Shown one piece after another: positions 11,034 through 64,000 of a stretch of 64,000 bases of DNA. This stretch comes from a bacterium. GTDB lineage: Bacteria; SAR324; NAC60-12. A model generated the notes under the pieces. It saw only the letters and a program-made list of their open reading frames with translations. It did no database searches and was not told the DNA's origin. The stretch's first letter is position 1; each line of letters starts with the position of its first letter. The translations under genes were made by a program, and so were the position numbers. The DNA lies in the NCBI GenBank assembly GCA_965205865.1, contig CBDBHR010000030.1, forward strand, positions 1,191,866 to 1,255,865, written 5' to 3'.

Positions 11034-12503
11034 ATGATGCGAACAATCGCAATCCATAGAAAAGGTAGATTGGGAGTTCGGCCCCGAAGAAACAATCGGT
11101 TCGTAGGTTTTTTCGGAGTGGCTCTTGTACTGGCAGGGTGCGTTAATGTACAGCCTGAAGGTTCCCACAGGCCGCAGAGGGAGTGGGAAATGCCGCAAGT
11201 TCCCATCACGGTGGAGTCGAAACCTCTCAGGGTGGATACTCGTCCCTGCACCGGTTCATTTATTCCTCGTTATTTGTCTCATGACACCCTCGCAACTTCC
11301 GGCCTGTATGGCTATGTAAAAAGCATCACCCGTGGAATGTCCGGTCGCATTGGATTTTATCTGAGCAATGGGGCAGGTGTGGCATTGGCAGACCTGGACA
11401 ACGATGGTTTCATCGATATAGTCTTACCGGGGTTGCATGCGCCGACCAGCATTTACTGGAACCTGGGGGGGATGAAATTTCGATACGAGCAGCTGGACGC
11501 AAAATTCGCACGGGCGGTCAACGTGGTCGATGTGGATGGCGATGGTTTGCCAGACTTGGTATTCACTCATGTGGCAGGCCCGCCCTCGTTGTGGCGTGCT
11601 GGTGCCGGAGCATCAGGACCGGCATATACGCGTCTTTCAGATGATGAATTCCGCGGCGCCTTCAATCTCTATGCGATCGCTTGGGCGGATTTGGATGAGG
11701 ATGGAGATCTCGATATGGTAGGGGCTTCCTATGATTCGGAACTCAATCAACAAGGTCGCGGTTCAGGTGGGGTGTTCCTCTACATGAATGACGGTGGTGT
11801 TCTCACGCCTTTCCGTCTTTCCACCAATGCCACTGCCCTTGCTCTGATCCTCACTGATCTCAATGGGGATAGACGTCGCGACATCCTGGTAGGCAACGAC
11901 TTCCATCCGGCTGATGAAGTGCTTTTCAACACGCCCGAAGGCTGGATCAATGCGACTCCCTTCACCAGCACCACCACCAATACGATGAGCTTTGCGGAAG
12001 GAGACATCGATAACGATGGGATCCCGGAACTGCTGGCTACCGATATGAAGCCCTACCGTCAGGATGAAGCCATTGCGCATGCTTGGGCTCCGATGCTGGA
12101 AAACGAGCAAGGTTTGGAACCGGGGGACGGGGTGCAAATCGTGGCCAATGTTCTACAATCTCGTGAGCAGGGAGGCTTGGAATTTGTGGATCGTGCTGAA
12201 GAAGTCGGCGTGGACGCCACCGGTTGGAGTTGGTCGGCCCAATTTGGAGATCTGGACAACGATGGATTCCTCGACCTCTATGTCGTCAATGGCATGATTG
12301 CCATCCAACTTTTTGAGCATTTACCCGGTGACGAGTTGGTAGAAGAGAACCAAGCCCTGCGCAACGACGGAACCGGTCATTTCGTACCAGCTCTAGTTAA
12401 ATATCATTTAAAAAAGATTCCCGGAGAGGATCGATCGTTTTCAAGTCCTCCCACGATATTGTTCAATCGATCGGGAACCCTCTCGTTCATTAAAACAACT
12501 TAG
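11034..12503 (+). CDS. FG-GAP/VCBS-repeat lipoprotein (ASPIC/UnbV-like)
   Basis: LAGC lipobox. Six or more DxDGDGxxD-type repeats (DLDNDGFIDIV, VDVDGDGLPDLV, DLDEDGDLDMV, DIDNDGIPELL, DLDNDGFLDLYV). The last ~30 codons are supplied by a dispersed repeat element (from 12411). Confidence 0.7.
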   Translation: MMRTIAIHRKGRLGVRPRRNNRFVGFFGVALVLAGCVNVQPEGSHRPQREWEMPQVPITVESKPLRVDTRPCTGSFIPRYLSHDTLATSGLYGYVKSITRGMSGRIGFYLSNGAGVALADLDNDGFIDIVLPGLHAPTSIYWNLGGMKFRYEQLDAKFARAVNVVDVDGDGLPDLVFTHVAGPPSLWRAGAGASGPAYTRLSDDEFRGAFNLYAIAWADLDEDGDLDMVGASYDSELNQQGRGSGGVFLYMNDGGVLTPFRLSTNATALALILTDLNGDRRRDILVGNDFHPADEVLFNTPEGWINATPFTSTTTNTMSFAEGDIDNDGIPELLATDMKPYRQDEAIAHAWAPMLENEQGLEPGDGVQIVANVLQSREQGGLEFVDRAEEVGVDATGWSWSAQFGDLDNDGFLDLYVVNGMIAIQLFEHLPGDELVEENQALRNDGTGHFVPALVKYHLKKIPGEDRSFSSPPTILFNRSGTLSFIKTT

Positions 12504-12900
12504 CAAAGGCATCATTCTATTACACAAAAACCCAATGTCAACCCCCCAAGGCAAAATAAATGCGGGATTCGCAAAAAAAATAAAAAATCAATAAATCTGC
12601 TCAAATCCGGGGACAGTCAGAAGCCGTTCAGTTCAATAACGTTGAAAAAAGATTCCCGAGGAGTATCCATCACTTCACTTCCTCCCGCACTTATTTTGAA
12701 TCGAACGGGCGGGAACCCTCCCAAGATTTTGTTCAATCGATCAAGCGGGAACCCTTTTCTTCCCTAAAACAACAAGGCATGATTTTAGTACAACAACTAA
12801 CAACGCAGCTTCAAGCCCCCAAAAAAAAAATAAGCGGAGTCCGCGAAAAAAATAAAAAAACCATGAAGGGATCGATTGTTTTTTTAAGTTAGTTGGTCAA
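12411..12900. repeat. Dispersed repeat family, two tandem ~230-270-bp units; an inverted copy set lies at 28863-29110
   Basis: Shared blocks: aaaaagattcccgg..., ttgttcaatcgatc..gggaaccct, ctaaaacaac...atgattttagta, and caaaaaaaataaaaaa. Reverse-complement matches occur at 28863-29110. Confidence 0.7.
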
Positions 12901-13129: not shown

Positions 13130-14030
13130 TAGGTAAGCTCATAATTTTCCCTTCCGTTCAAAACTTATCCTTCGCAATAAGCTTACCGGCGAGAACTGTT
13201 CCCATGCGCCACGCAGATAAGGCTTCGAGTCCTCCGGCAATGACTTGCCAGGCTTCTACGCTCTTTGCACTTCGATGGCGCATGCTTCTCCGTTGATATC
13301 CCATTCGGCTCCACGTCGACCGGACATCAGGTGACCACTGGGAATAGCTTCCAGGTGATTGGCAAGAGTTTCCGTCTTGATAAACTGATCAAATCGCGTG
13401 ACTGCTGTTTGCACGAATTGTGAAGTTTGATAACGAACATGAATACGCGCCATCACGTCGAACGCCTGCTCTTTTCTCATATTCTGTACTTTATTGACGA
13501 ATTCCCGGGCAAATCCTTCCTGTTGCAAGTCAATTGTCAGTTCCGTATTCAGGGCAACGGTCACATTGTTTTCCGTCTGCGCCAGTAAGCCTTCTTTTTC
13601 ATGACGTTGCAAAAGCACGTCTTCGGGTGCTAAGATAATAGTTTCTCCATCCAACTCCAATGTCGTCCGTTTGCCATCCCGCAGCCGAAAAATAGCGGAG
13701 GAATCGAGCTCCACAATGGTTCGGGCGACTTGTTTCATGCGAACTCCGAGCTTCGGTCCGAGCACACTGTAATTGGCCTTGGCGCTGTAAGTCACTAAAT
13801 CTTCTTCATTATCAGCCACGACGACTTTCTTGATATTCAACTCTTCCGTGATCAATTCTTCCATGTCGTTCAAAATCGCTACGGCTTCCGGGTCACGGGT
13901 CACCAGAAAAATGCTGGCAAGGGGTTGTCGTATTTTCAATTGATGCTTGTTACGCAAGGCGCGTCCCATGCTGACTGCCGAGAGCACCAATTCCATTTTC
14001 TTTTCGATTGCAGGGTCCCGATATTGGGGT
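13130..14030 (-). pseudogene. ileS: Duplicated 3' fragment of ileS (last ~246 codons plus 3' UTR), detached from the gene
   Basis: Nucleotide sequence 13130-14023 is near-identical to 17660-18550. ORF 13256..13996 equals the C-terminus of the 1044-aa IleRS. Homology stops abruptly at about 14023. Confidence 0.85.
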
Positions 14031-14037
14031 CAGGCTG

Positions 14038-15642
14038 TGCGCCAGGAAAGCTGGCAAGAAATAGAGAGTGAAAGTCTCTTACTCGGTAAGGCAGTAACGA
14101 CCCGCCGAGTCCCCGAGTCATGAGTGGTTATTCGCAAGGATAGGCGCTAAGCGTTGACAGGGGAGAACATAGGCTCGGTATTGAGCTCCGAAATCATAGT
14201 CTCAGGCGCTGACCTTGTGGTCTGGTGGGGAAGGCAATATCAACCGAAGGCGTTAGCGTGAGTCTCGGCTGAGCCTGGCGGAGTCAAAGACCCGGTGCAT
14301 GTGTGGAAGTTTCTTGATCGGAACCTGGGAGATCCTGAAGACGACTGTCAACATTCTATTGGTAGTCGGATCGGGAAAATTAATAAATAACCCCGATATC
14401 TACGTCTTCAGGAAGTCGGACAAGTTCGTAGTAGCGTGAGCAGCCGACAAGGCTGTGGATTTTGGAGAGTGAAAGTCTCTCTGTCGTCAGTTTCCCATTC
14501 GGGCGACTAGCATATCCGGTGCGCTTAGCAGGTAACTGCTTTGCGTTCTGCCCGGAAGTAAAAGTCACCGTCTGCTTTGGACGAGAGTCCATAGTGGGAG
14601 CCAACAGGGTGGCGAGCAAACCTGGAGGCCTGAACATTAGTGAATGATTGCAGCTCCGAAAGAGACTTCCGTCGTGAATTGGCTTGACGGTGTGTTGCCC
14701 AACCGCCGACCCGCTCGCTACTCGGGGAAGGCCGAAGTTCCAAGGGAAGTAATGGGAACAGGCACCTTGGAGGGAGCCGGAGTATGGATCCAAGCATCCA
14801 GGGAAAGATCCACAGAGATAACGTCGGGAAGGGCCAACTTCCAGCAGGGACTCGCAATAACCTGCAAGGACCTACCGTATAGGGTAACACCGAAATCGGC
14901 AGGAGGATTTTGGTCTGGCGCATGAGTCCGTATGAGCGATGAAGACCGGGTAACGCTGGTCGAGGGGATGCTTGGACATCTCCCTTTTGGAGGTAACACC
15001 TCTAAAAGGCAAAGGGGCTCTCGGTAAATGGCGGGCATTTCATGAACCACTGCCGAACTTGTGTCGGTCAAGAGTGTCACCACAAAGAATGTCGAGCTGG
15101 AGATCAAATCACTCACTCCAGGGGTGAATGCAGGCGAGTGCTTAAGCTTCGGATTGGGTGGGAAGGGTTTCTGGGGAAACGCTGTTGCTGCCAACCGGAC
15201 TCGGGAAATCCGACCGTCCGGGATGAGAGGGGGGCTTGCGGAAACGTGATGCAGGGTCTGACGCCCTTTTGCCACGAAACCGGAAACGGGGGATACATTG
15301 GAAGTCGTTGACCTAAACATGCGCGCGCCGTATTTCTACCCGGCATGAAGCGGCGAACAATGAGATCATTTGCAGAGAGTAACAATGCAAAGGAAATCAA
15401 CGGAGCCTGTGGAGCAAAGGGACTTGGCTGAGAGGAATTCTGCTTGCCCTCCTGTGTTCGGAACTCAGAGGCCGTAAAATCAGAGAGCGGTTTAAGCAGG
15501 GTGCGCCAAACGGCAACGTTTGAGCGTCTGACTCGAAGCAGGAGCCGGATGCGTTAGCAGCGCACGTCCGGATCTGTACCGGAGGAATGACGAAAGGTGG
15601 CTGGAAACCACTATAAGTCAGTTCTTTACGGTGACTGCATAC
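14038..15642 (+). ncRNA. Group II intron RNA, apparently ORF-less (no intron-encoded RT/maturase); 3' boundary approximate
   Basis: Starts GUGCG at 14038, followed by the GCCAG-GAAA-CUGGC hairpin (DI). The D3-like block ...gggtaacgc...ggcaaagggg resembles Ll.LtrB-type IIA introns. Domain V candidate at 15542-15575: GAGCCGGAUGCG-loop-CGCACGUCCGGAUC with the AGC triad. The D6-like region follows. No ORF with RT motifs exists on either strand. Confidence 0.55.
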
Positions 15643-17781: not shown

Positions 17782-20700
17782 CTACGCTCTTTGCACTTCG
17801 ATGGCGCATGCTTCTCCGTTGATATCCCATTCGGTTCCACGTCGACCGGACATCAGGTGACCACTGGGAATAGCTTCCAGGTGATTGGCAAGAGTTTCCG
17901 TCTTGATAAACTGATCAAATCGCGTGACTGCTGTTTGCACGGATTGTGAAGTTTGATAACGAACATGAATACGCGCCATCACGTCGAACGCCTGCTCTTT
18001 TCTCATATTCTGTACTTTATTGACGAATTCCCGGGCAAATCCTTCTTGTTGCAAGTCAATTGTCAGTTCCGTATTCAGGGCAACGGTCACATTGTTTTCC
18101 GTCTGCGCCAGTAAGCCTTCTTTTTCATGACGTTGCAAAAGCACGTCTTCGGGTGCTAAGATAATAGTTTCTCCATCCAACTCCAATGTCGTCCGTTTGC
18201 CATCCCGCAGCCGAAAAATAGCGGAGGAATCGAGCTCCGCAATGGTTCGGGCGACTTGTTTCATGCGAACTCCGAGCTTCGGTCCGAGCACCCTGTAATT
18301 GGCCTTGGCGCTGTAAGTCACTAAATCTTCTTCATTGTCAGCCACGACGACTTTCTTGATATTCAACTCTTCCGTGATCAATTCTTCCATGTCGTTCAAA
18401 ATCGCTACGGCTTCCGGGTCACGGGTCACCAGAAAAATGCTGGCAAGGGGTTGTCGTATTTTCAATTGATGCTTGTTACGCAAGGCGCGTCCCATGCTGA
18501 CTGCCGAGAGCACCAATTCCATTTTCTTTTCGATTGCAGGGTCCCGATAGCGTCTCCGGACTTGGGGAAAGTTCGCCAGGTGCACGCTCTCTTCATCTCG
18601 TTCGTTTCGCAGATTGCGGTAAATTCCTTCGGCAATAAAGGGCACAAAGGGTGCGATCACTTTGGAGAGCTCCACTAAGACCTGATAAAGTACCGCATAG
18701 GCTTCCTGCTTGTCTTTTCCCTGTCCCGCCTTCCAAAATCGGCGGCGGCTGCGTCTAATATACCAATTGGTCAACAAGTCGATGAAGCCCACGAAAGGAG
18801 CAACGGATTTATTCAAATCGTAGGCGTCCATGCTGGCTCTCACTGTTTCGATCAGTCCCTGCAATTTGGACAATATCCAGCGATCCAGGGGATTGGAGGG
18901 CATGCTCAGTATTTCCCCGGAGGGCTGCCAGCGGTCGATAGCGGCATAGGTGGTCAGAAAGGCCAGAGCATTCCAAAGGGGCAGCAAAATAGAACGGGTG
19001 GTGTCCACCAGTCCTTTTTCCGAAAACCTGAGATCGTCTCCGCGTACTGCCGGGGAATTGAGCATGTAGAGACGAATGGCATCCGCTCCATATTGGTCCA
19101 ACATGTTGATAGGATCCGGATAGTTTTTCAGTCGTTTGCTCATTTTTTTACCATCTTCAGCCAGGACGAGTCCGTTGACGATGACATTGTGAAAGGCCGG
19201 TTTGTTGTACAATGCCGTCCCGACGACGACCAGAGAATAGAACCAGCCTCTTGTTTGATCCAACCCCTCACAAATAAAATCCGCAGGGAAATTGGCGTCA
19301 AATCTTTCTTTGTTTTCAAAAGGGTAATGTTCCTGACCATAGGGCATAGAGCCGGATTCGAACCAACAATCGAGCACTTCGGGAATCCGCTTATATATTT
19401 TGTCATTTTGAACTATCACCAGATCGTCCACCAAGTGTTTGTGCAAATCTTCCACTTTTTGTCCGCTCGCTTCTTCCAGTTCTGCCACGCTACCGAAACA
19501 GAGACAATCTCCATCCTCACTCTTCCAAATCGGCAATGGGGTTCCCCAGAAACGATTTCGACTGATGGCCCAGTCTCTCGCATTTTCCAACCATTTGCCA
19601 AAACGTCCATCCCGGATGTGCCCCGGTACCCAATGAATGGTCTGATTATTTTGCACCATCTGGTCTTTGATTGCTTCCACCTTGACGAACCAGGTCGAGA
19701 TGGCTTTATAGATGAGGGGGGTGTCCGTTCGCCAGCAGAAGGGATAACTGTGTTCGATGGTTTCGTGTCTGAGAATTTTGTTCTTGTCTTTCAAATAGCG
19801 GATGATCGTTTTGTCGGCCGCCTTGATATTCAACCCTGCCAGGAATCCCATGTAGGATTGAAAATTTCCGTCATCGTCCACCGGGTCGAACAGGGGTAAA
19901 CCTTCCCGCAGGCCAATCCGCAAGTCATCTTCACCAAAGGCTGGCGCTTGGTGGACAATGCCGGTTCCACTTTCATCACTGATATAATCGTCGACCAGCA
20001 CCCGCCATACCCGGCTGCTGTCCACTCGTCCAATGGCAAAGTCAAACGGTGGATGATAAGTTTTGTTCCGCAAATCGCTGCCTTTCAAGGCGTCAAGCAC
20101 TTCATATTCACCGGCTTGCCAATAAGCAGGTATGCGGTTGGTTGCCAGGTAATAGTTTTCTCCACTGGCCTTTTCCCTGATTTTGACGTAATCTATTTCC
20201 GCTCCGACACAGCATGCCAGATTTGCGGGGATGGTCCAGGGAGTGGTGGTCCATCCTAAATAATAAGTGTTTTCCTCATCAGTCGCCTGGCATTTGAAAG
20301 TAATCGAAGGATCCTGCGTCTCCTGATAGTTGAGGTTGGCTTCGAAATTGGAAAGAGGAGTTGAAAGCCGCCAGGAATAAGGCACCACTTTTCTGCCTTC
20401 GTAGATGAGATTCTTCTGCCATAATTGTTTCATCACCCACCAAACAGATTCCATGTAGGAGCGATCCATGGTTTTGTAATCGTTGTCAAAATCTACCCAA
20501 CGGGCCATACGATCCACGGTTTCCCGCCATTCCCTGGTGTATCGTAATACGATTTTGCGACATGCTTCATTGTAATTCCCTATACCAAATTCGATGATAT
20601 CCGGACGCCCTTCTAATTGGAGCGCTTGTTCCACCTCAAACTCGACCGGCAGTCCGTGGCAATCCCAACCAAAACGCCGTTCCACTCGATGGCCTCGCAT

Positions 20701-20916
20701 GGTTTTGTAACGAGGAATGACGTCTTTGATGGTACCGGCAAGCAAATGACCATAGTGAGGCAATCCTGTCGCAAAAGGAGGTCCATCATAAAATACGAAT
20801 TCACGATCTTTGGGACGTTGTTCGATCGATTTTTCAAAGATTTGTTGATGCTTCCAAAACGCCAGAATCTCGCTTTCAAGATCGGGGAAATTTATTTTAT
20901 TGGAAATTTCTTTCAT
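17782..20916 (-). CDS. ileS: Isoleucine--tRNA ligase, type 2 (eukaryote-like)
   Basis: 1044 aa; HYGH (HIGH) and KMSKR (KMSKS) motifs; CP1 editing domain. Confidence 0.95.
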   Translation of the reverse strand: MKEISNKINFPDLESEILAFWKHQQIFEKSIEQRPKDREFVFYDGPPFATGLPHYGHLLAGTIKDVIPRYKTMRGHRVERRFGWDCHGLPVEFEVEQALQLEGRPDIIEFGIGNYNEACRKIVLRYTREWRETVDRMARWVDFDNDYKTMDRSYMESVWWVMKQLWQKNLIYEGRKVVPYSWRLSTPLSNFEANLNYQETQDPSITFKCQATDEENTYYLGWTTTPWTIPANLACCVGAEIDYVKIREKASGENYYLATNRIPAYWQAGEYEVLDALKGSDLRNKTYHPPFDFAIGRVDSSRVWRVLVDDYISDESGTGIVHQAPAFGEDDLRIGLREGLPLFDPVDDDGNFQSYMGFLAGLNIKAADKTIIRYLKDKNKILRHETIEHSYPFCWRTDTPLIYKAISTWFVKVEAIKDQMVQNNQTIHWVPGHIRDGRFGKWLENARDWAISRNRFWGTPLPIWKSEDGDCLCFGSVAELEEASGQKVEDLHKHLVDDLVIVQNDKIYKRIPEVLDCWFESGSMPYGQEHYPFENKERFDANFPADFICEGLDQTRGWFYSLVVVGTALYNKPAFHNVIVNGLVLAEDGKKMSKRLKNYPDPINMLDQYGADAIRLYMLNSPAVRGDDLRFSEKGLVDTTRSILLPLWNALAFLTTYAAIDRWQPSGEILSMPSNPLDRWILSKLQGLIETVRASMDAYDLNKSVAPFVGFIDLLTNWYIRRSRRRFWKAGQGKDKQEAYAVLYQVLVELSKVIAPFVPFIAEGIYRNLRNERDEESVHLANFPQVRRRYRDPAIEKKMELVLSAVSMGRALRNKHQLKIRQPLASIFLVTRDPEAVAILNDMEELITEELNIKKVVVADNEEDLVTYSAKANYRVLGPKLGVRMKQVARTIAELDSSAIFRLRDGKRTTLELDGETIILAPEDVLLQRHEKEGLLAQTENNVTVALNTELTIDLQQEGFAREFVNKVQNMRKEQAFDVMARIHVRYQTSQSVQTAVTRFDQFIKTETLANHLEAIPSGHLMSGRRGTEWDINGEACAIEVQRA

Positions 20917-31359: not shown

Positions 31360-31464
31360 GAGCTGTGTTAAAACCTTGTTCCCCCTCTCCTGGTGGGAGG
31401 CAGAGAAGCAGTTTGGCCACAGGCGTGGCCAGTAAAAACTACTGAACGCGGGAGGGGGCATCAT

Positions 31465-32421
31465 ATGAAAGCCTATCTCATCCGGCGGGTATTGCTGGTA
31501 ATCCCCACCCTGTTTATCCTGAGCATCCTGGTCTTTCTCTCGGTGCGCTTCATCCCCGGCGACGTCGTAGATGCCATGTTGGGTCAGCTGCAGTCGACAA
31601 TAGGGAGGATAGACCGTGCAGCCGTTGAGCGTCGGCTGGGACTGGACGTGCCGGTCTGGGAGCAGTATGGACGCTGGATCGGCCAGATTCTCCGGCATGG
31701 CAGCCTGGGCAAATCCCTGTGGGGCGAATGGACGGTAGAGGAGAGGATACTAGCTAGCCTGCCGATCACCCTTGAGCTTGGCGTCCTGGCCATCGTAATC
31801 GGGCTTGTGATCGCGCTGCCCGTGGGTATCTACTCGGCGATGCGCCAGGATACGGTCGGCGATTACGCGGGGCGTTCCCTGGCCATCATCGGCCTGGCCA
31901 CGCCGAACTTCTGGCTGGCCATTATGGTGATACTCTACCCGGCCATCTGGTGGGGCTGGACGCCGCCGATGCAGTGGGTTCCTTTCACCAAAGACCCGCT
32001 GGGGAATCTCGGGATATTCCTCATTCCCAGCGCGATTCTGGGGACAGCCATGGCCGCCGCCACCATGCGCATGACGCGCACTATGATGCTGGAGGTGCTC
32101 CGGCAGGACTATATCCGCACCGCTTGGTCCAAGGGCCTCAGGGAGCGGGTCGTGATTATCCGGCACACCATCAAAAATGCCCTCATCCCGGTGGTAACTC
32201 TGATCGGCCTGCAGTTGCCGATCCTGGTAGGGGGCGCGGTGATCATGGAGAATATCTTCAACCTGCCGGGACTCGGTCGTCTCATGCTGGATGCCCTGCA
32301 ACACCGGGACTACCCGGTGGTCCAGGGAACCAACCTGTTTTTCGCGACCGGGGTGGTGCTGCTCAATCTTTTGATCGACCTGATATATCCCTATTTGGAC
32401 CCCAGAGTCAGATATGAATAG
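31465..32421 (+). CDS. ABC transporter permease, DppB-like (cluster 2)
   Basis: MKAYLIRRVLLVIPT...MRMTRTMMLEVLRQDYIRTAWSKGL; Shine-Dalgarno GGAGGGGG. Confidence 0.85.
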   Translation: MKAYLIRRVLLVIPTLFILSILVFLSVRFIPGDVVDAMLGQLQSTIGRIDRAAVERRLGLDVPVWEQYGRWIGQILRHGSLGKSLWGEWTVEERILASLPITLELGVLAIVIGLVIALPVGIYSAMRQDTVGDYAGRSLAIIGLATPNFWLAIMVILYPAIWWGWTPPMQWVPFTKDPLGNLGIFLIPSAILGTAMAAATMRMTRTMMLEVLRQDYIRTAWSKGLRERVVIIRHTIKNALIPVVTLIGLQLPILVGGAVIMENIFNLPGLGRLMLDALQHRDYPVVQGTNLFFATGVVLLNLLIDLIYPYLDPRVRYE

Positions 32422-32464
32422 TCGTTATGCTTCTGGTAAATATAGGTTTGAGATTCGTCTGTCA

Positions 32465-32885
32465 GAAGTAGTCCCTGAGGGACGAAAGGAAGTAGCCCAG
32501 CGATTCATCGCTGGGAACAAAAGATAGTCTCCTTCAAAGTCCCGGAGGGACGATACAACAATGAGGTTTCATGTCCCATTCCTACATCAGCAATCATCTT
32601 CATGGTGTCTTTTGCGCAAAAAACCGAGTTGAGATGATGACTCCTGAAATCAAAAAGCGCCTTTTTCCTTATTTGACATCATGAGCGTTATATTTGGGAG
32701 TAACTCGCTGGATCGAAGAAGTGTCGTCCCTCCGGGACTAGCTGAGGAGGAGGGGGGTTCCTTTCCCAGCGATGAATCGCTGGGCTATTCCCTTTCGTCC
32801 CTCTGGGACTAGCTGAGGAGGGGGTTCCTTTCCCAGCGATGAATCGCTGGGCTATTCCCTTTCGTCCCTCCAGGACTGCATTATA
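32465..32885. repeat. Cluster of short hairpin repeats inserted between the two permease genes of cluster 2
   Basis: Hairpin cccagcgattcatcgctggg at 32496, and its reverse complement twice (32766, 32833) inside a tandem ~70-bp unit. Multiple gtccctNNgggac palindromes. Confidence 0.7.
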
Positions 32886-32899
32886 GAAAAATCGAGAAC

Positions 32900-33868
32900 A
32901 TGAGCGACAGCATAGAGACGCCATCCCCGATCATTGAGTCCAAGCGACGGGGCCGGTTTGTGGATTTCTTCATCAGGCTGATCAGGGAAAAGCCCCTCGG
33001 GACGTTTGGCGGGATAGTCACCTTGATCTTTATTTTGTTGGCGATCTTTGCCGAGCTTCTGGCGCCTTATCCCTATCGGGAAATACACCTGGCCGACATA
33101 CTAAAAGGCCCAGCCGCCCAGTATCTGCTGGGGACCGACCATTTGGGGCGAGACCTGTTGAGCCGCCTTCTCTACGGGGCTCGTATTTCCTTGACCGTCG
33201 GTCTGGCCGCGACGGTGCTGAATGTGGTGGTCGCTGTCCTGATTGGCGGCACTTCCGGATTCCTGGGGGGGAAAGTGGACCTGGCGGTGCAGCGCTTTGT
33301 CGATGCCTGGATGGCCTTCCCGGGGCTGCTCTTGTTGTTAACCATCATGTCCATCGTGGGACAAGGCCTCCTCCAGATCATCGTGGTGTTGGGGATTACC
33401 GGAGGTGTCGGCGGCTCCCGAGTCATCCGAGGCGCCGTGGTGGGCATCAAAGAGAATGACTATTTCCTGGCAGCCAGGGCCGTAGGCACTCCCACGCGCC
33501 ATATCCTGACCCGCCATGTGCTGCCCAATATTATGGCGCCCCTCATCATCATCTTCTCGATCAACATTGGCGGCGTAATCATCGCCGAGGCGTCGCTGAG
33601 CTTCCTGGGATTCGGGCTGCCCCTCAAGGTTCCCAGCTGGGGAGGAATGCTCAGCCGGGAAGGGCGGGAATTCATGGAGCGGGCGCCCCGGCTGGCGCTC
33701 TGGCCGGGGCTGTGCCTGACGATTGTCGTCTACTCTCTCAACATGTTCGGAGACGCCATGCGAGACCTGCTGGATCCCCGGCTGCGAGGCGGACAGGGAA
33801 GTTACGGCGCCACGGGGAAACGCAAACGAGGTCTCTTGGCCCGACTGATCAACCCTTTCAACTGGTAA
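32900..33868 (+). CDS. ABC transporter permease, DppC-like (cluster 2)
   Basis: LLGTDHLGRD, SLTVGL, GDAMRDLLDPRLRG. Confidence 0.85.
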   Translation: MSDSIETPSPIIESKRRGRFVDFFIRLIREKPLGTFGGIVTLIFILLAIFAELLAPYPYREIHLADILKGPAAQYLLGTDHLGRDLLSRLLYGARISLTVGLAATVLNVVVAVLIGGTSGFLGGKVDLAVQRFVDAWMAFPGLLLLLTIMSIVGQGLLQIIVVLGITGGVGGSRVIRGAVVGIKENDYFLAARAVGTPTRHILTRHVLPNIMAPLIIIFSINIGGVIIAEASLSFLGFGLPLKVPSWGGMLSREGREFMERAPRLALWPGLCLTIVVYSLNMFGDAMRDLLDPRLRGGQGSYGATGKRKRGLLARLINPFNW

Positions 33869-33931: not shown

Positions 33932-35386
33932 TTGAATATTAAAATGCGATCCCATATCTTGGTTCCTGTTCTCAACTCGAATCGATATCCTGCTTTGCCG
34001 GTCCTTCTTACAGATGCCATAGAAAATAAAATGAACTCTAATAAAGTCAGAGATTCGGTGGTTGCCCTTTTTACCTGCAAAGATCGTGTATTTGTCATCC
34101 AAAGGCAGTCTTATTTGACGGTTTTCCCCGGTTATCATTCATTTCCGGGAGGCAAAGTGGATCGGGAAGATTCGCATCAACCCTATGAGATTCGTTTTCT
34201 CCGTGACCACAAAGCCCAGATGATGCATGCCCTTTGTCGTGAAGTTGAAGAAGAATTGAATTTTGATTTGGCAGCCGCCATTTTAAGGGGTCAGGTCGAA
34301 CATTTTTCAAAATTCGGATATGCCATCACTCCTGTTTTCAATCCTGTTCGTTTCAATGCCCGATTTTATAGAATAGAACTGACCTCCCGGGTGGAATTCA
34401 ATGTGGACAGTAACGAAACGGCATGGGCGAGTTGGCTTTCTGCGCAGGATTTTATGAAGCAATACCAACAGGGACAGATTTTGGCTGCCGTTCCCACACT
34501 GCGCGTGATGGAGAGGTTGGCTGAAAATCCGAATGTCAATAATTTGGCAGAACTGCATTTGAGTTATGATCCGCAAAACGAAGTGCCTTGTATGCAGCCC
34601 GTCTATCAAGTAGTGCAGCTGCCGGTTCCATCGAATACTCTTCCTCCTGCGGAAAGCACGAATGCCTTCATTCTGGGCGATGATCATTGCGAGCGTTATC
34701 TGGTAGATCCTTCGCCGGCATCTCCGGAGGTGTTGGCACGTTTGCATCATGTGGTCCGTTCCTTCCGAATAACGGGTGTTTTTTTAACGCACCATCACCC
34801 GGATCATCATCAATTCTGCAACAAACTGGCCCGTGACTTTCAAGTTCCAATAAAAATGAGCCGGGATTCCTATGAACGGATTTGTAAGAAATTCGGCCAT
34901 GAATATTTTGACAAGCTTGAAATCCAGTTTGCTCAGGAAGGGGACATTCTCACTCAATGGCTGGGTAAAGATATCCAAATTTTTGAGATTCCAGGGCATG
35001 ATGAAGGGCAATTGGGGTTGGCGCCAACGACGATGGACTGGTTTCTGGTAGGAGATTTGATGCAGGGCGTCGGAACTGTCGTGATTGCAGCGCCGGAAGG
35101 AAATATGAAAAAATATTTTGCGTCCCTGGAGAAGGTCATCTCGTTGGACCCCAAGATCATCATTCCTTCTCATGGCATACCTCTGAGAACCACGTTGTAC
35201 CTCAAAAGAGCCCTGGAACATCGGCAGATGAGAGAGCGACAGATTCTACAACTTTACAAGGAGGGAAAATCAAAAGAGGAAATGTTGTCGACACTCTATC
35301 AGGATATCGACCCTCGATTACTGCAGGCAGCCTTGCGCAATATCGAATCCCATCTGGCAAAGCTGCAAACAGACCATTTGATTTGA
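33932..35386 (+). CDS. Fusion protein: N-terminal NUDIX hydrolase domain + C-terminal MBL-fold metallo-hydrolase domain
   Basis: Nudix box GGKVDREDSHQPYEIRFLRDHKAQMMHALCREVEEELN. MBL motif LTHHHPDHH plus downstream H/D ligands. The true start may be the internal MNSNK. Confidence 0.65.
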   Translation: MNIKMRSHILVPVLNSNRYPALPVLLTDAIENKMNSNKVRDSVVALFTCKDRVFVIQRQSYLTVFPGYHSFPGGKVDREDSHQPYEIRFLRDHKAQMMHALCREVEEELNFDLAAAILRGQVEHFSKFGYAITPVFNPVRFNARFYRIELTSRVEFNVDSNETAWASWLSAQDFMKQYQQGQILAAVPTLRVMERLAENPNVNNLAELHLSYDPQNEVPCMQPVYQVVQLPVPSNTLPPAESTNAFILGDDHCERYLVDPSPASPEVLARLHHVVRSFRITGVFLTHHHPDHHQFCNKLARDFQVPIKMSRDSYERICKKFGHEYFDKLEIQFAQEGDILTQWLGKDIQIFEIPGHDEGQLGLAPTTMDWFLVGDLMQGVGTVVIAAPEGNMKKYFASLEKVISLDPKIIIPSHGIPLRTTLYLKRALEHRQMRERQILQLYKEGKSKEEMLSTLYQDIDPRLLQAALRNIESHLAKLQTDHLI

Positions 35387-61597: not shown

Positions 61598-62605
61598 ATG
61601 AGAGCCTATATCATCAGGCGCTTATTGCTGATAATCCCCACCTTGTTTATATTGACCATCCTGGTCTTTCTCTCGGTGCGCTTCATCCCGGGCGATGTCA
61701 TAGACGTAATGATGAGTAGGATGGAAATGTACTTTAACTGGGACGAACGTGACCGTGAAGTTCTTGAGCATAAGCTGGGATTAAACGTGCCTGTGCACGT
61801 GCAGTATGGACGCTGGATAGGAGTGTTGCCGACCCCTGACTGGGTTACCGGTGAGTCCCGCTACAACGGTCTCCTCCAGGGCACCCTTGGCCAGTCACTG
61901 CTTCGCGGCCAGGAGGCGGTAGAGGAGAAGATAATAGGTAGATTGCCAGTGACCATTGAGCTTGGAGTCATGGCAATCGTGATCGGGCTCGTGATAGCGC
62001 TGCCAGTCGGCATCTATTCGGCGATTCGGCAGGATACAGCCGCCGACTACGCGGGGCGCTCCATCGCCGTCATCGGCCTGGCAACGCCTAACTTCTGGCT
62101 GGGCATCATGGTCATGATCTTCCCGGCACTCTGGTGGGGCTGGTCGCCACCGATGGAGCTGGTTTCTTTCACGGAAGACCCGCTGGGGAATCTCGGGGTG
62201 TTCCTCATTCCCAGTCTGATTCTGGGGACGGCCATGGCTGCAGCCACAATGCGGATGACGCGCACCATGATGCTGGAGGTGCTCAGGCAAGACTATATCA
62301 GGACCGCCTGGTCAAAGGGACTCAAGGAGAAGGTCGTGGTGATCAGACACGCCCTCAAGAATGCCCTCATCCCGGTCGTGACCCTGATCGGCTTGCAGTT
62401 GCCGATCCTGGTCGGCGGCGCCGTGATCATGGAGAACATCTTCAACCTGCCGGGGCTCGGGCGTCTCTTGCTGAATGCCCTCAATGACAGAGACTACCCG
62501 ATGGTTTCCGGAATAAACCTGGTTTTCGCCACTGGCGTGGTGGGGATCAATCTATTTATCGACCTGTTCTATGCCTTCTTGGACCCAAGGGTGCGGTATG
62601 AGTGA
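61598..62605 (+). CDS. ABC transporter permease, DppB-like (cluster 3)
   Basis: MRAYIIRRLLLIIPT...MRMTRTMMLEVLRQDYIRTAWSKGL. Confidence 0.85.
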   Translation: MRAYIIRRLLLIIPTLFILTILVFLSVRFIPGDVIDVMMSRMEMYFNWDERDREVLEHKLGLNVPVHVQYGRWIGVLPTPDWVTGESRYNGLLQGTLGQSLLRGQEAVEEKIIGRLPVTIELGVMAIVIGLVIALPVGIYSAIRQDTAADYAGRSIAVIGLATPNFWLGIMVMIFPALWWGWSPPMELVSFTEDPLGNLGVFLIPSLILGTAMAAATMRMTRTMMLEVLRQDYIRTAWSKGLKEKVVVIRHALKNALIPVVTLIGLQLPILVGGAVIMENIFNLPGLGRLLLNALNDRDYPMVSGINLVFATGVVGINLFIDLFYAFLDPRVRYE

Positions 62606-63344
62606 ATCAAAGCGACGGGGCCGGCTGTCGGATTTCTTCATCAGGCTGCTCAAGGAGAAGCCGCTCGGTACTGTCGGTCTGGCCGCGACGGCGCTGAATG
62701 TGCTCATCGCAGTCCTGATCGGCGGCACTTCCGGATTCATTGGCGGGAAATTCGACCTGGTGGTGCAGCGCTTTGTCGATGCCTGGATGTTTCCCGGGAC
62801 TGCTGCTCTTGTTAACCATCATGTCCATCGTGGGGCGGGGTTTGCCACAGATCATCCTGGTCCTGGGGGTCACCGGAGGCATCGGCGGCTCCCGAGTCAT
62901 CCGAGGTGCCGTAGTGGGCATTAAAGAGAATGACTATTTTCTGGCAGCCCGGCCGTAGGCACTCCCACGCGCCATATCCTGATCCGGCATGTCCTGCCCA
63001 ATATCATGGCGCCCCTGATCATCATCTTCTCGATCAACATTGGCGGCGTTATCATTACCGAGGCATCGCTGAGCTTCCTCGGATACGGGCCGCCCGTCGA
63101 GTTACCCAGCTGGGGTGGCATGCTCAGCCGGGAAGGACGCACCTACATGGAGATGGCGCCCTGGCTGGCGCTCTTTCCCGGTCTTGCCCTGACGATTGTC
63201 GTCTACTCCCTCAACATGTTCGGCGATGCCATGCGGGACCTGCTCGATCCCCGGCTTCGGGGTGGTGAGGGTCGTTACGGCACCGCAAAAGGGAGACGCA
63301 AAAGAGGTCTCCTGGCCCGATTGATCAACCCTTTCAACTGGTAA
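62571..63344 (+). pseudogene. DppC-like permease (cluster 3), inactivated by an internal ~186-bp deletion, indels near 62790 and a premature stop at 62955
   Basis: Alignment to the cluster-2 paralog: KPLGT joins directly to VGLAATALNV (losing TM1 and the GTD motif); a frame change follows VDAWM; AARP* replaces AARAVGTPTRH. The remaining frame (63006..63344) still encodes the conserved C-terminus. Confidence 0.8.
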
Positions 63345-63581
63345 GCGCAAAAAATTAGAGGTGGCTGCATTTAAGGAGAAGCCTTGGAATCTCTGTAAAA
63401 ATCCCCCTAATTCTGTCAGCTCTCTCTTGTTACGACATCCAACAATGAGTTCTAGTTCTGTAATCACACTAATTCCTATCGAACTCTGAGCCTCAATTCG
63501 TTTCAAGTAATCAATGGCTTCCTGTACGTCTCTTCCAACATCAATGAGAATATCGGTATCAATCAAAATGATTTCTGCCAT
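63345..63581 (-). pseudogene. VapC-like PIN-domain toxin, 3'-truncated remnant
   Basis: MAEIILIDTDILIDV...ISVITELELIVG gives the first two PIN acidic positions. The frame then runs antisense into the permease pseudogene, so the distal catalytic residues are missing. AT-rich relative to its flanks. Confidence 0.5.
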
Positions 63582-63730
63582 TTCTGGCTCTCCACTCTTG
63601 TTTTCTTACCCTTTGAACCCATGAGGAACTATCTTCCATATCTTTTCTATCTCTCCACATCCCCACAAATGCATCTTTTCCCAAATCTGAATAGTCGCCT
63701 TTTGATTGGTTTTGATACCGTTGAGCTAAA
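63582..63730 (-). pseudogene. VapB-like antitoxin remnant (no in-frame start codon)
   Basis: ...DLGKDAFVGMWRDRKDMEDSSSWVQRVRKQEW resembles the C-terminal region of the small antitoxins paired with PIN toxins. Its stop overlaps the vapC ATG. Confidence 0.3.
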
Positions 63731-64000
63731 GAATTATGGTTAACAAGAGCAGCAGCCCCGGGAAGGCCATCCAGGCATCGACAAAGCGCTGCACCGCCAG
63801 GTCCCATTTCCCTCCCAGAAACCCCGAAATGCCACCGATGAGGAGCGCGACGATGACATTGAGCGCCGTGGCGGCCAGACCGACGGTTAAGGAAATGCGA
63901 GCCCCGACGATCAGGCGGCTCAACAAGTCACGCCCCGTATGGTCGGTCCCCAGCAGATACTGAGCGGAGGGACCAGTCAGCCGATCGGCCATGCGCATTT
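63726..64000 (-). CDS. DppC-like permease, 5' portion of a fourth copy (enters the window from the right; truncated at 63726)
   Basis: LLGTDHTGRD...VDAWMAFPGLLLLLTIIL*; homology to the other copies ends right after gttaaccat, at the junction with the AT-rich vapBC segment. Confidence 0.65.
   Translation of the reverse strand, partial: MRMADRLTGPSAQYLLGTDHTGRDLLSRLIVGARISLTVGLAATALNVIVALLIGGISGFLGGKWDLAVQRFVDAWMAFPGLLLLLTIIL

Follow-up and report, generated by a model that had tools for sequence, protein, structure and literature searches.

This report concerns a block of hairpin repeats in a 64,000-nucleotide stretch of bacterial DNA (hereafter the window; contig CBDBHR010000030.1 of assembly GCA_965205865.1, 48% G+C). 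The block lies between permB and permC, the permease genes of the second of three permease gene clusters in the window, which belong to a peptide-type ATP-binding cassette (ABC) transporter operon. An earlier sequence-only reading had placed a separation of about 480 bp here and had suggested that the insert was either an element resembling repetitive extragenic palindromic (REP) sequences or a miniature inverted-repeat transposable element (MITE). The gap is indeed 478 bp long (32422–32899), and the permease genes of the other clusters are, as that reading stated, adjacent or overlapping, being 80 bp apart in cluster 1 (4353/4434) and joined by the usual overlapping stop and start codons, ATGAGTGA (62597–62604), in cluster 3, although permC of cluster 3 is in fact a frameshifted pseudogene (62597–63974) with its frame broken into several pieces. 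When the two junctions are compared, the N-terminus of cluster 2 permC (MSDSIETPSPII...) is longer than that of its uninterrupted cluster 3 paralogue. The observations below indicate that the block is very probably the remnant of a REPtron-like cassette, in which a single small Y1 (HUH, IS200-like) transposase gene was framed by inverted arms of three hairpins each.

Architecture of the hairpin block

A 46-nt unit of two hairpins occurs three times in the block: an inverted copy lies on the left and a tandem pair on the right, giving the arrangement (-)|(+)(+). The longer hairpin of the unit, CCCAGCGATTCATCGCTGGG, is 20 nt in length with an 8-bp stem and a 4-nt loop; it occurs once at 32496 (+) and as its complement at 32765 and 32832, just as had been read from the letters, where the number of matches expected by chance is 0.01 and none of 100 shuffles reached the observed count. 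Read on the plus strand, the left arm consists of an outer hairpin, GTCCCTGAGGGAC (32471–32483), a 12-nt linker ending in GTAG, and then CCCAGCGATTCATCGCTGGG (32496–32515). The tandem unit previously estimated at about 70 bp has a period of 67 bp (2.2 copies over 32724–32877 with 91% match, Tandem Repeats Finder), but the block is more than a tandem array: its two arms, with three hairpins each, form inverted repeats. Specifically, the left part (32469–32517) is a 48–49-nt inverted repeat of each right unit, with 92–94% complementarity, and the inner palindromes at 32538–32556 and 32721–32739 form a further inverted pair (I3) that is 95% complementary. Short palindromes had also been noticed, and there are five of them with the form GTCCC-NNN-GGGAC (32471, 32539, 32726, 32797 and 32864, the last with one mismatch); their loops are 3 nt long and not 2 nt as first written.

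Folding of the region, proposed earlier as a check, yields a very stable structure. The predicted RNA fold has an energy of -208 kcal/mol (z -10.4) and includes a 49-bp duplex, the DNA fold has an energy of -105 kcal/mol (z -11.8), and in neither case did any shuffle fold as well. The other proposed check, a search for further copies of the hairpin, gave a divided answer: the motif is multi-copy in other genomes, but pattern, Rfam and R1 (our own model) scans found no further copy in the rest of the 64-kb window. Given a motif that is multi-copy in other genomes and a fold this stable, the proposal of a REP-like element survives. No consensus-like promoter or terminator sites were found in the block, and a promoter or terminator role was rejected on that ground; as nothing of either kind was seen, the block is presumably co-transcribed with the operon. 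The features of the locus are collected in Table 1.

Table 1. Features at the cluster 2 permB–permC junction (positions are those of the window)
Feature	Position	Strand	Evidence or remark
Upstream ABC permease gene permB (DppB/OppB-like), left neighbour outside the element	31393..32421	+	Pfam BPD_transp_1 7.9e-36 and BPD_transp_1_N
48-nt spacer from permB stop to first hairpin, outside the inverted repeat	32422..32469	.	Still 90% conserved in related locus L122
Left outer arm, one Acido-Lenti-1 unit	32470..32515	-	RF01687 51.2 bits; R1 64.2 bits
Left inner hairpin AGTCCCGGAGGGACGA, 17 nt upstream of the stub ATG	32538..32553	+	Same inner hairpin before the start codon in every intact homologue
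N-terminal stub of IS200-like Y1 (HUH) transposase, codons 1-36 (MSHSYISNHLHGVFCAKNRVEMMTPEIKKRLFPYLT)	32571..32678	+	Family model positions 1-36, E 1.8e-7
C-terminal remnant in another frame, HHERYIWE then stop	32677..32703	+	Intact homologues end DERYIWD then stop
Right inner hairpin TCGTCCCTCCGGGACTA, inverted partner of 32538-32553	32724..32740	+	Same position after the stop codon in intact loci
Right arm, first Acido-Lenti-1 unit	32765..32810	+	RF01687 52.9 bits; R1 64.8 bits
Right arm, second tandem Acido-Lenti-1 unit	32832..32877	+	RF01687 54.2 bits; tandem period 67; absent from L122 and L124
Downstream ABC permease gene permC (DppC/OppC-like)	32900..33868	+	Pfam OppC_N and BPD_transp_1

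A gutted transposase gene between the arms

The centre of the block carries the two ends of a small gene. As it stands, the N-terminal stub is an open reading frame (ORF) of 37 amino acids (32571–32684) that gives weak matches to Pfam Y1_Tnp and to the N-terminus of NCBIfam IS200 (NF033573, 15 bits) and to no other family, and it aligns with the beginning of a family hidden Markov model built from seven intact neighbours. A word-indexed protein search with the stub returned no matches; tblastn of the 37-residue peptide against the motif-selected loci described below reached the N-termini of ORFs of 145–150 amino acids. The second remnant, ERYIWE followed by a stop codon, lies just upstream of the right inner hairpin, and such a match arose in none of 20000 shuffles of the centre. 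The window thus keeps both gene ends and has lost about 105 internal codons, and the stub is without the HuH, W and Y motif regions. Judged from its sequence, then, the centre of the block is an internally deleted Y1 transposase gene, and this copy cannot move by itself.

Intact cassettes elsewhere

The association between the hairpin unit and this type of gene can be seen from either direction. A motif-selected sample of at least 120 loci, one genome per species, was gathered with the hairpin pattern CCCAGCGNNNNNNCGCTGGGCTA alone, and eight of the loci listed have a Y1 gene directly flanked by the motif (seven intact and one running off its contig). The upstream unit is on the opposite strand in 8/8 and the downstream unit on the same strand in 7/7 of the intact cases, while a third, inner hairpin of the GTCCC type lies against the start codon and a further one comes after the stop codon, as they do at 32538–32553 and 32724–32740. 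The intact proteins are 145–150 amino acids long, match Pfam Y1_Tnp with E-values of 1e-22 to 1e-27, and contain HUH (DHxH) and Y (YIxNQxxHH) motifs. Additional Y1 fragments that are frameshifted, truncated or divergent occur at L010, L029, L064 and L099 and as a second copy in L114.

The converse sample consists of seven of the 4605 homologues of one intact protein, all on long contigs and chosen by protein similarity only. Here, a unit lies 69–115 nt upstream on the opposite strand in 7/7 loci and 46–58 nt downstream in 6/7, frequently as two or three units in tandem (period 69–76 bp), and these units also score above Rfam's own threshold. Hence, a Y1 gene flanked by inverted palindromic repeats, which is one mark of a REPtron, is found at the eight motif-selected and at all seven protein-selected loci, with the window retaining the gene as a stub only, and the layout of one unit on the left and two on the right is typical of the cassette family.

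Two of the intact cassettes, in different genomes (L126 2001–2453 and L127 2001–2453), lie in the same neighbourhood of acyltransferase, rpsR and mutS genes, which suggests vertical inheritance. They are inverted relative to these neighbours, as would be expected from recombination between inverted arms.

Gene-less derivatives

The motif is also dispersed without the gene. Among 168 strong hits, neighbouring units are oriented (-,+) in 31 pairs, versus 8, 4 and 1 pairs for the other three orientations, and the spacers within these (-,+) pairs fall into distinct ranges. Among the motif-selected loci listed, 21 pairs with spacers of 85–124 bp are gene-less doublets in which the inner hairpins stand almost back to back, so that the whole can form one long hairpin of about -104 to -173 kcal/mol; seven pairs with spacers of 499–614 bp each enclose an intact gene. 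Intermediate spacers are found in the window (249 bp), in its relative L121 (222 bp) and in L003 (166 bp). Because the gene sits between the inner hairpins, the doublets look like complete internal deletions of it. The simplest reading is that the gene resides inside the doublet in a REPtron-like system and that the copy in the window, partly deleted, is on its way to becoming such a doublet. Other arrangements occur as well, such as the six units at L125 (78–465) that run head to tail on one strand with a period of 68–69 bp and no gene between them. Copies avoid long ORFs, with 39% lying inside them versus 88% of random positions. A second mark of REPtrons, a repeat scattered without its gene and including inverted doublets, is therefore seen in the doublets, the L125 array and single units, all in genomes other than the host of the window.

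It is worth considering whether the block could instead be what remains of an ordinary autonomous insertion sequence (IS) of the IS200/IS605 type, with the gene-less copies as solo ends. The intact relatives do resemble such elements, in that they are about 150 amino acids long, carry the DHxH and Y---Q motifs, and pass the IS200 model NF033573 (60.7 and 75.5 bits, cut-off 55); partial copies also exist (the second fragment in L114, L064 and L029). However, an IS200/IS605 element ends in unlike left and right subterminal hairpins that lie on one strand, and it has no terminal inverted repeats, whereas the ends here are inverted repeats of 85–95 nt. Likewise, gene-less inverted doublets outnumber gene-bearing units among the loci listed, protein clusters at 90% identity are found on 1–4 contigs for nearly all of those listed, and the gene neighbourhood shared by two genomes suggests vertical inheritance. 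Furthermore, the sequence signature is that of TnpAY1 subclass 1.2, which has been separated from true IS200 as low-copy and not IS-like (Quentin et al. 2018, PMC6006769). The classical IS200 explanation is weakened in particular by ends that are inverted repeats and by the surplus of doublets, and we regard it as improbable.

The hairpin unit and Acido-Lenti-1

All three units of the window match the Rfam family RF01687, Acido-Lenti-1, over the full length of the model (positions 1–46) and above its gathering score of 37 bits. This two-hairpin motif was described from 89 representatives, which belong to Acidobacteria and Lentisphaerae and in some cases lie near group II introns, and it was rated a probable RNA, with covariation alone as functional evidence (Weinberg et al. 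2010, PMC2864571); Rfam gives its type as Gene, a small RNA (sRNA) of unknown function. In the published seed (PMC2864571, supplementary file 183), Lentisphaera araneosa contigs account for more than 50 copies and Koribacter versatilis for 12, many of the seed copies lying in arrays 70–200 nt apart, and so Acido-Lenti-1 is a repeated element even in the published data. The units of the window share with the family a length of 46 nt, a stem of 8 bp with a 4-nt loop, a conserved GGCUA, a 12-nt linker and a stem of 5 bp with a 3-nt loop, and seed members from whale-fall and soil metagenomes have an identical CCCAGCGAUGAAUCGCUGGGCUA. What differs is the setting: the unit here forms the outer portion of each inverted arm in a Y1 transposase cassette, it is found in metagenome-assembled genomes labelled Planctomycetota, Verrucomicrobiota, Acidobacteriota and others, and the host of the window is probably related to SAR324 and thus outside the phyla named for the Rfam family. 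The DnaK encoded in the window has 99% identity to proteins on large contigs, and its nearest relatives with a name, at 85%, come from SAR324 metagenome-assembled genomes. These observations suggest that the motif named Acido-Lenti-1 is really a transposon-end DNA repeat.

The pattern of base pairing is informative about which strand folds. Across 114 distinct units, 98% of cells are paired, almost purely by Watson-Crick pairs, and both partners have changed in 10 of the 13 pairs. Wobbles on the Rfam strand, among 1461 cells, comprise 6 G.U and 11 A.C, and the published seed, which is unbiased by our search pattern, has 38 A.C versus 8 G.U on that strand. In many Lentisphaera seed copies, the fourth pair of the long hairpin is A.C when read on the modelled strand and G.U when read on the other. 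The excess of A.C over G.U implies that the folding strand, if there is a single one, is the complement of the modelled strand, and it suggests that RF01687 may be modelled on the wrong strand. On that complement, TAG stands directly before the long hairpin, similar to the GTAG foot of classical REPs. The TAG foot (CTA on the Rfam strand) is 99–100% conserved in a sample whose search pattern fixed it in one copy per locus, and its first base varies among G, A and T, the left side of the window's block having GTAG and the right side ATAG; in the unbiased published seed, CUA is present in 44/70 sequences and CUG in 18/70.

These data also bear on the notion that the units are trans-acting sRNA genes, of which the window would contain three. 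In its favour are the matches above the Rfam threshold, the covariation that supports both hairpins and the rating as a probable RNA by Weinberg et al. (2010, PMC2864571), whose paper offers no functional evidence beyond that covariation. Yet the units occur in both orientations within one transcription unit, in inverted and tandem arrays and in tens of copies per genome, they frame a transposase gene, and no promoter- or terminator-like signals were found with them; the modelled strand has hardly any G.U pairs, and the bias among wobbles favours the other strand. Orientation, arrays, gene association and wobble bias led us to reject the sRNA genes, which we consider extremely improbable, and the same features, taken together with the absence of promoter- and terminator-like sites from the block, favour a repeat that acts at the level of DNA.

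Weinberg et al. noted Acido-Lenti-1 near group II introns, and the window contains a match to group II intron domains D1–D4 at 14071–14293 (+) (RF02005, 168 bits), 18 kb from the hairpin block and with no long reverse-transcriptase ORF after it. The intron match adjoins a 246-amino-acid ORF (13256–13996, -) that duplicates the C-terminal DUF5915 domain of isoleucyl-tRNA synthetase, the full gene for which (17782–20916, -) lies 4 kb from this partial duplicate.

Related loci and the age of the insertion

In an exhaustive search, the best match to the stub is P0001 (E 1.6e-10), found on two metagenomic contigs (L121 and L122) and again located between permease genes. The possibility that P0001 is a second, transposed copy of the deletion derivative was rejected, as its context is the homologous permease locus in a relative; it is therefore no evidence of mobility. 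A scan of metagenomes yielded a third homologue, L124, where the block is directly upstream of permC and where the left arm and permB are replaced by unrelated sequence. The window, L121, L122 and L124 share both the insertion site and the internal deletion, and no copy with the stub was found outside this homologous permease locus (L121, L122 and L124). Comparison of these sequences places the insertion in an ancestor of at least three sampled lineages. The copies have since changed in detail: the relatives are without one 67-bp unit and without a further 23 bp, and the left arm of L122 is degraded, with a model score of 37.7 versus 64, loss of the TAG foot and a stem mismatch. The block of the window has the inverted arms and the loss of coding capacity that are traits of a MITE. 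The sequence-only reading chose the right class, a REP-like and MITE-like repeat of transposon origin, but it missed the central Y1 gene, the identity with RF01687 and the inverted arms of three hairpins.

Several features of the surrounding permease loci can be recorded here. In L121 (3056–8348) and L122 (same range), no binding-protein gene is found upstream of the block-bearing permease pair, which is preceded by IS21-like (rve, IstB) and IS1595 transposase genes and followed by a third, inverted permB-like fragment at about 12030–12756. Relative to L121, the cluster 3 permC pseudogene of the window is missing about 196 bp near 62668–62672, and its segment 63733–63974 is an inverted match to permC. 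ATPase genes are missing downstream of permC in cluster 2, where the gene that follows (33932–35386) encodes a fusion of NUDIX and metallo-beta-lactamase domains. An exact-match look-up of the permC protein returned no match.

Origin, mechanism and present function

A number of points weigh against a REPtron-like origin. Neither the 64-kb window nor the 20-kb related contigs contain an intact transposase gene or a further motif copy, so activity, or even multi-copy status, in this host would be conjectural. The intact proteins fail the RayT model (NF047646 REP_Tyr_transpos, 25.7 bits versus a cut-off of 80) and are thus not REP-associated tyrosine transposases (RAYTs) in the strict sense. The motif-selected sample was found with a fixed hairpin sequence, and the conservation of the long hairpin within it is inflated as a result. 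No target-site duplication or defined target was found, the junctions of clusters 2 and 3 having a vague ATGA(G/A)T resemblance that we do not claim as one, and the literature that we searched contains no test of single-stranded-DNA cleavage by this enzyme family at these hairpins. Finally, the block is more conserved than simple decay predicts: when window 32422–32899 is compared with L122 9853–10235 and L124 165–453, the block is 89–93% identical, including the dead stub and the 48-nt flank, whereas the flanking genes are about 80% identical overall and 67–70% identical at third codon positions (Fisher p 3e-11 and 2e-16 for block versus third positions). Selection on the stub as a protein is unlikely, as 8/34 of its residues differ between lineages. 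The high conservation may reflect constraint at the nucleotide level or a gene divergence that has been inflated by conversion from the paralogous clusters.

This conservation is also a reason to ask if the block is now an intra-operon RNA element that the host has exapted, with a duplex that would be cut by an RNase III-like enzyme or would block exonucleases, that sets the stability or translation of permB and permC, and that is kept by selection. Such a role concerns present function and does not conflict with a transposon origin. In E. coli, REP elements of the mal and his operons stabilise the mRNA upstream of them, and transcribed Correia and ERIC repeats undergo processing. Consistent with this idea, the predicted RNA fold is very stable with a 49-nt duplex of 94% complementarity, read-through is plausible given that no terminator-like site is present, the block has changed less than third codon positions have, and the insertion has been retained in three lineages. 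However, the long duplex itself is not conserved, since the left arm is degraded in L122 and replaced in L124; the stub and the 48-nt flank are equally conserved with no obvious structural role; and gene conversion by the many permease paralogues, of which the window has three clusters, could inflate the divergence of the genes. On balance, we find exaptation doubtful.

Returning to the transposon remnant, each arm of the cassette comprises, from outer to inner, a GTCCC-type hairpin, a long CCCAGCG-type hairpin with a TAG foot and a second GTCCC-type hairpin, the outer two corresponding to what Rfam models as Acido-Lenti-1. The cassette very probably inserted at the permB/permC junction and then lost the internal transposase codons while keeping the gene ends and arms, with duplication of one 67-bp arm unit. 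If IS200/IS605 and REP/RAYT systems are a guide, the hairpins may serve as sites where the Y1 enzyme recognizes and cleaves single-stranded DNA, the chemistry of cleavage being extrapolated from work on IS608 and TnpA-REP, and the gene-less singles, inverted doublets and tandem arrays would be non-autonomous derivatives mobilised in trans. Within the operon, an effect of the block on the mRNA is plausible: the arms could form a long duplex in the transcript, leading to endonucleolytic processing or to an altered stability of the permB and permC halves. A more ambitious combination of these ideas would hold that the dead cassette is kept as a processing or stability module that uncouples permB from permC, with the whole 478-bp block under purifying selection at the nucleotide level in at least three lineages, and that Acido-Lenti-1 comprises the cognate repeats of TnpAY1 subclass 1.2 within a REPtron-like system that is old, spans phyla and produces doublets through loss of the gene from inside the repeat. 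That all of this should hold together is, in our view, unlikely.

What appears to be new here is the link between Acido-Lenti-1 and a Y1 transposase, and with it a set of candidate cognate repeats for a transposase subclass that was reported to have none; in the literature that we searched, no paper that names Acido-Lenti-1 also names these transposases. An Rfam "sRNA" family that has been an orphan since 2010 thereby gains a concrete and testable identity as the hairpin ends and scattered derivatives of a Y1 cassette, and a subclass described as repeat-less gains a candidate DNA substrate on which binding and cleavage could readily be assayed. The copy in the window is clearly intermediate in form between cassettes that carry the gene and doublets that lack it, and it bears on the origin of REPIN-like doublets. 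For the purposes of annotation, such blocks would be better called mobile-element remnants than sRNA genes, and if the conservation does reflect selection, this one would be a transposon remnant that has been recruited into operon expression.

Comparison with known systems

It is informative to set the block beside other mobile and repeated elements. MITEs that are transcribed within operons include Correia/NEMIS in Neisseria and ERIC in enterobacteria, and a REP element lies in malE-malF. Like these, the block lies within a polycistronic unit, and its inverted repeats allow a long hairpin to form in the RNA. In contrast, its origin is a Y1 and not a DDE transposon, and a cleavage or stability effect of the block would be conjectural. 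With IS200/IS605 elements such as IS608 and ISDra2, the intact cassettes share the enzyme fold and motifs and the presence of hairpins beside the gene ends, and the single-stranded "peel and paste" chemistry is the natural model for them. They differ in having inverted-repeat ends (92–95% complementary, with three hairpins each), in having no tnpB and in the predominance of gene-less derivatives.

TIRtrons, or TIRYT, are tyrosine transposase genes with long, sometimes double-palindromic and moderately repeated flanking inverted repeats, and they have been found also in Acidobacteria, in Koribacter versatilis (Di Nocera et al. 2013, PMC3733652). The cassettes described here likewise place a tyrosine transposase gene between inverted repeats, although most TIRYTs are longer proteins of subclass 2.1 with helix-turn-helix tails and GGGGWSAS repeats. 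The protein can also be set beside TnpAY1 subclass 1.2, which has a median length of 148 amino acids and the motifs DH[IV]H, WQ and YIKNQKEHH, is low-copy and not IS-like (Quentin et al. 2018, PMC6006769, Table 1), and is reported to be mostly cyanobacterial or from Bacteroidetes with no associated REP (Quentin et al. 2018, PMC6006769). As judged from motifs and not from phylogeny, the seven intact proteins of 145–150 amino acids agree with this subclass, with WQ, YI[KQEG][NSR]Q..HH (for example YIKNQKAHH and YIQNQEAHH) and mostly DH[VI]H, the exceptions being L055 (DHDH), L093 (DHSH) and L081 (NHIH). Unlike the described members, however, the genes here are consistently framed by a repeated hairpin motif and are found in other phyla.

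A further likeness is to REPtrons and the RAYT-REP(IN) systems (Nunvar 2010; Bertels and Rainey 2011, PMC3116915; Ton-Hoang 2012, PMC3333891), with which the cassettes share a single Y1 HUH gene between inverted palindromic repeats, the extragenic scattering of these repeats as singles, long-hairpin inverted doublets and clusters, and perhaps a conserved foot, in that the unpaired TAG beside the main hairpin may be comparable with GTAG. The differences are that each arm here has three hairpins, that the gene is inside the doublet, between its inner hairpins, and that the protein falls outside the RAYT clade.

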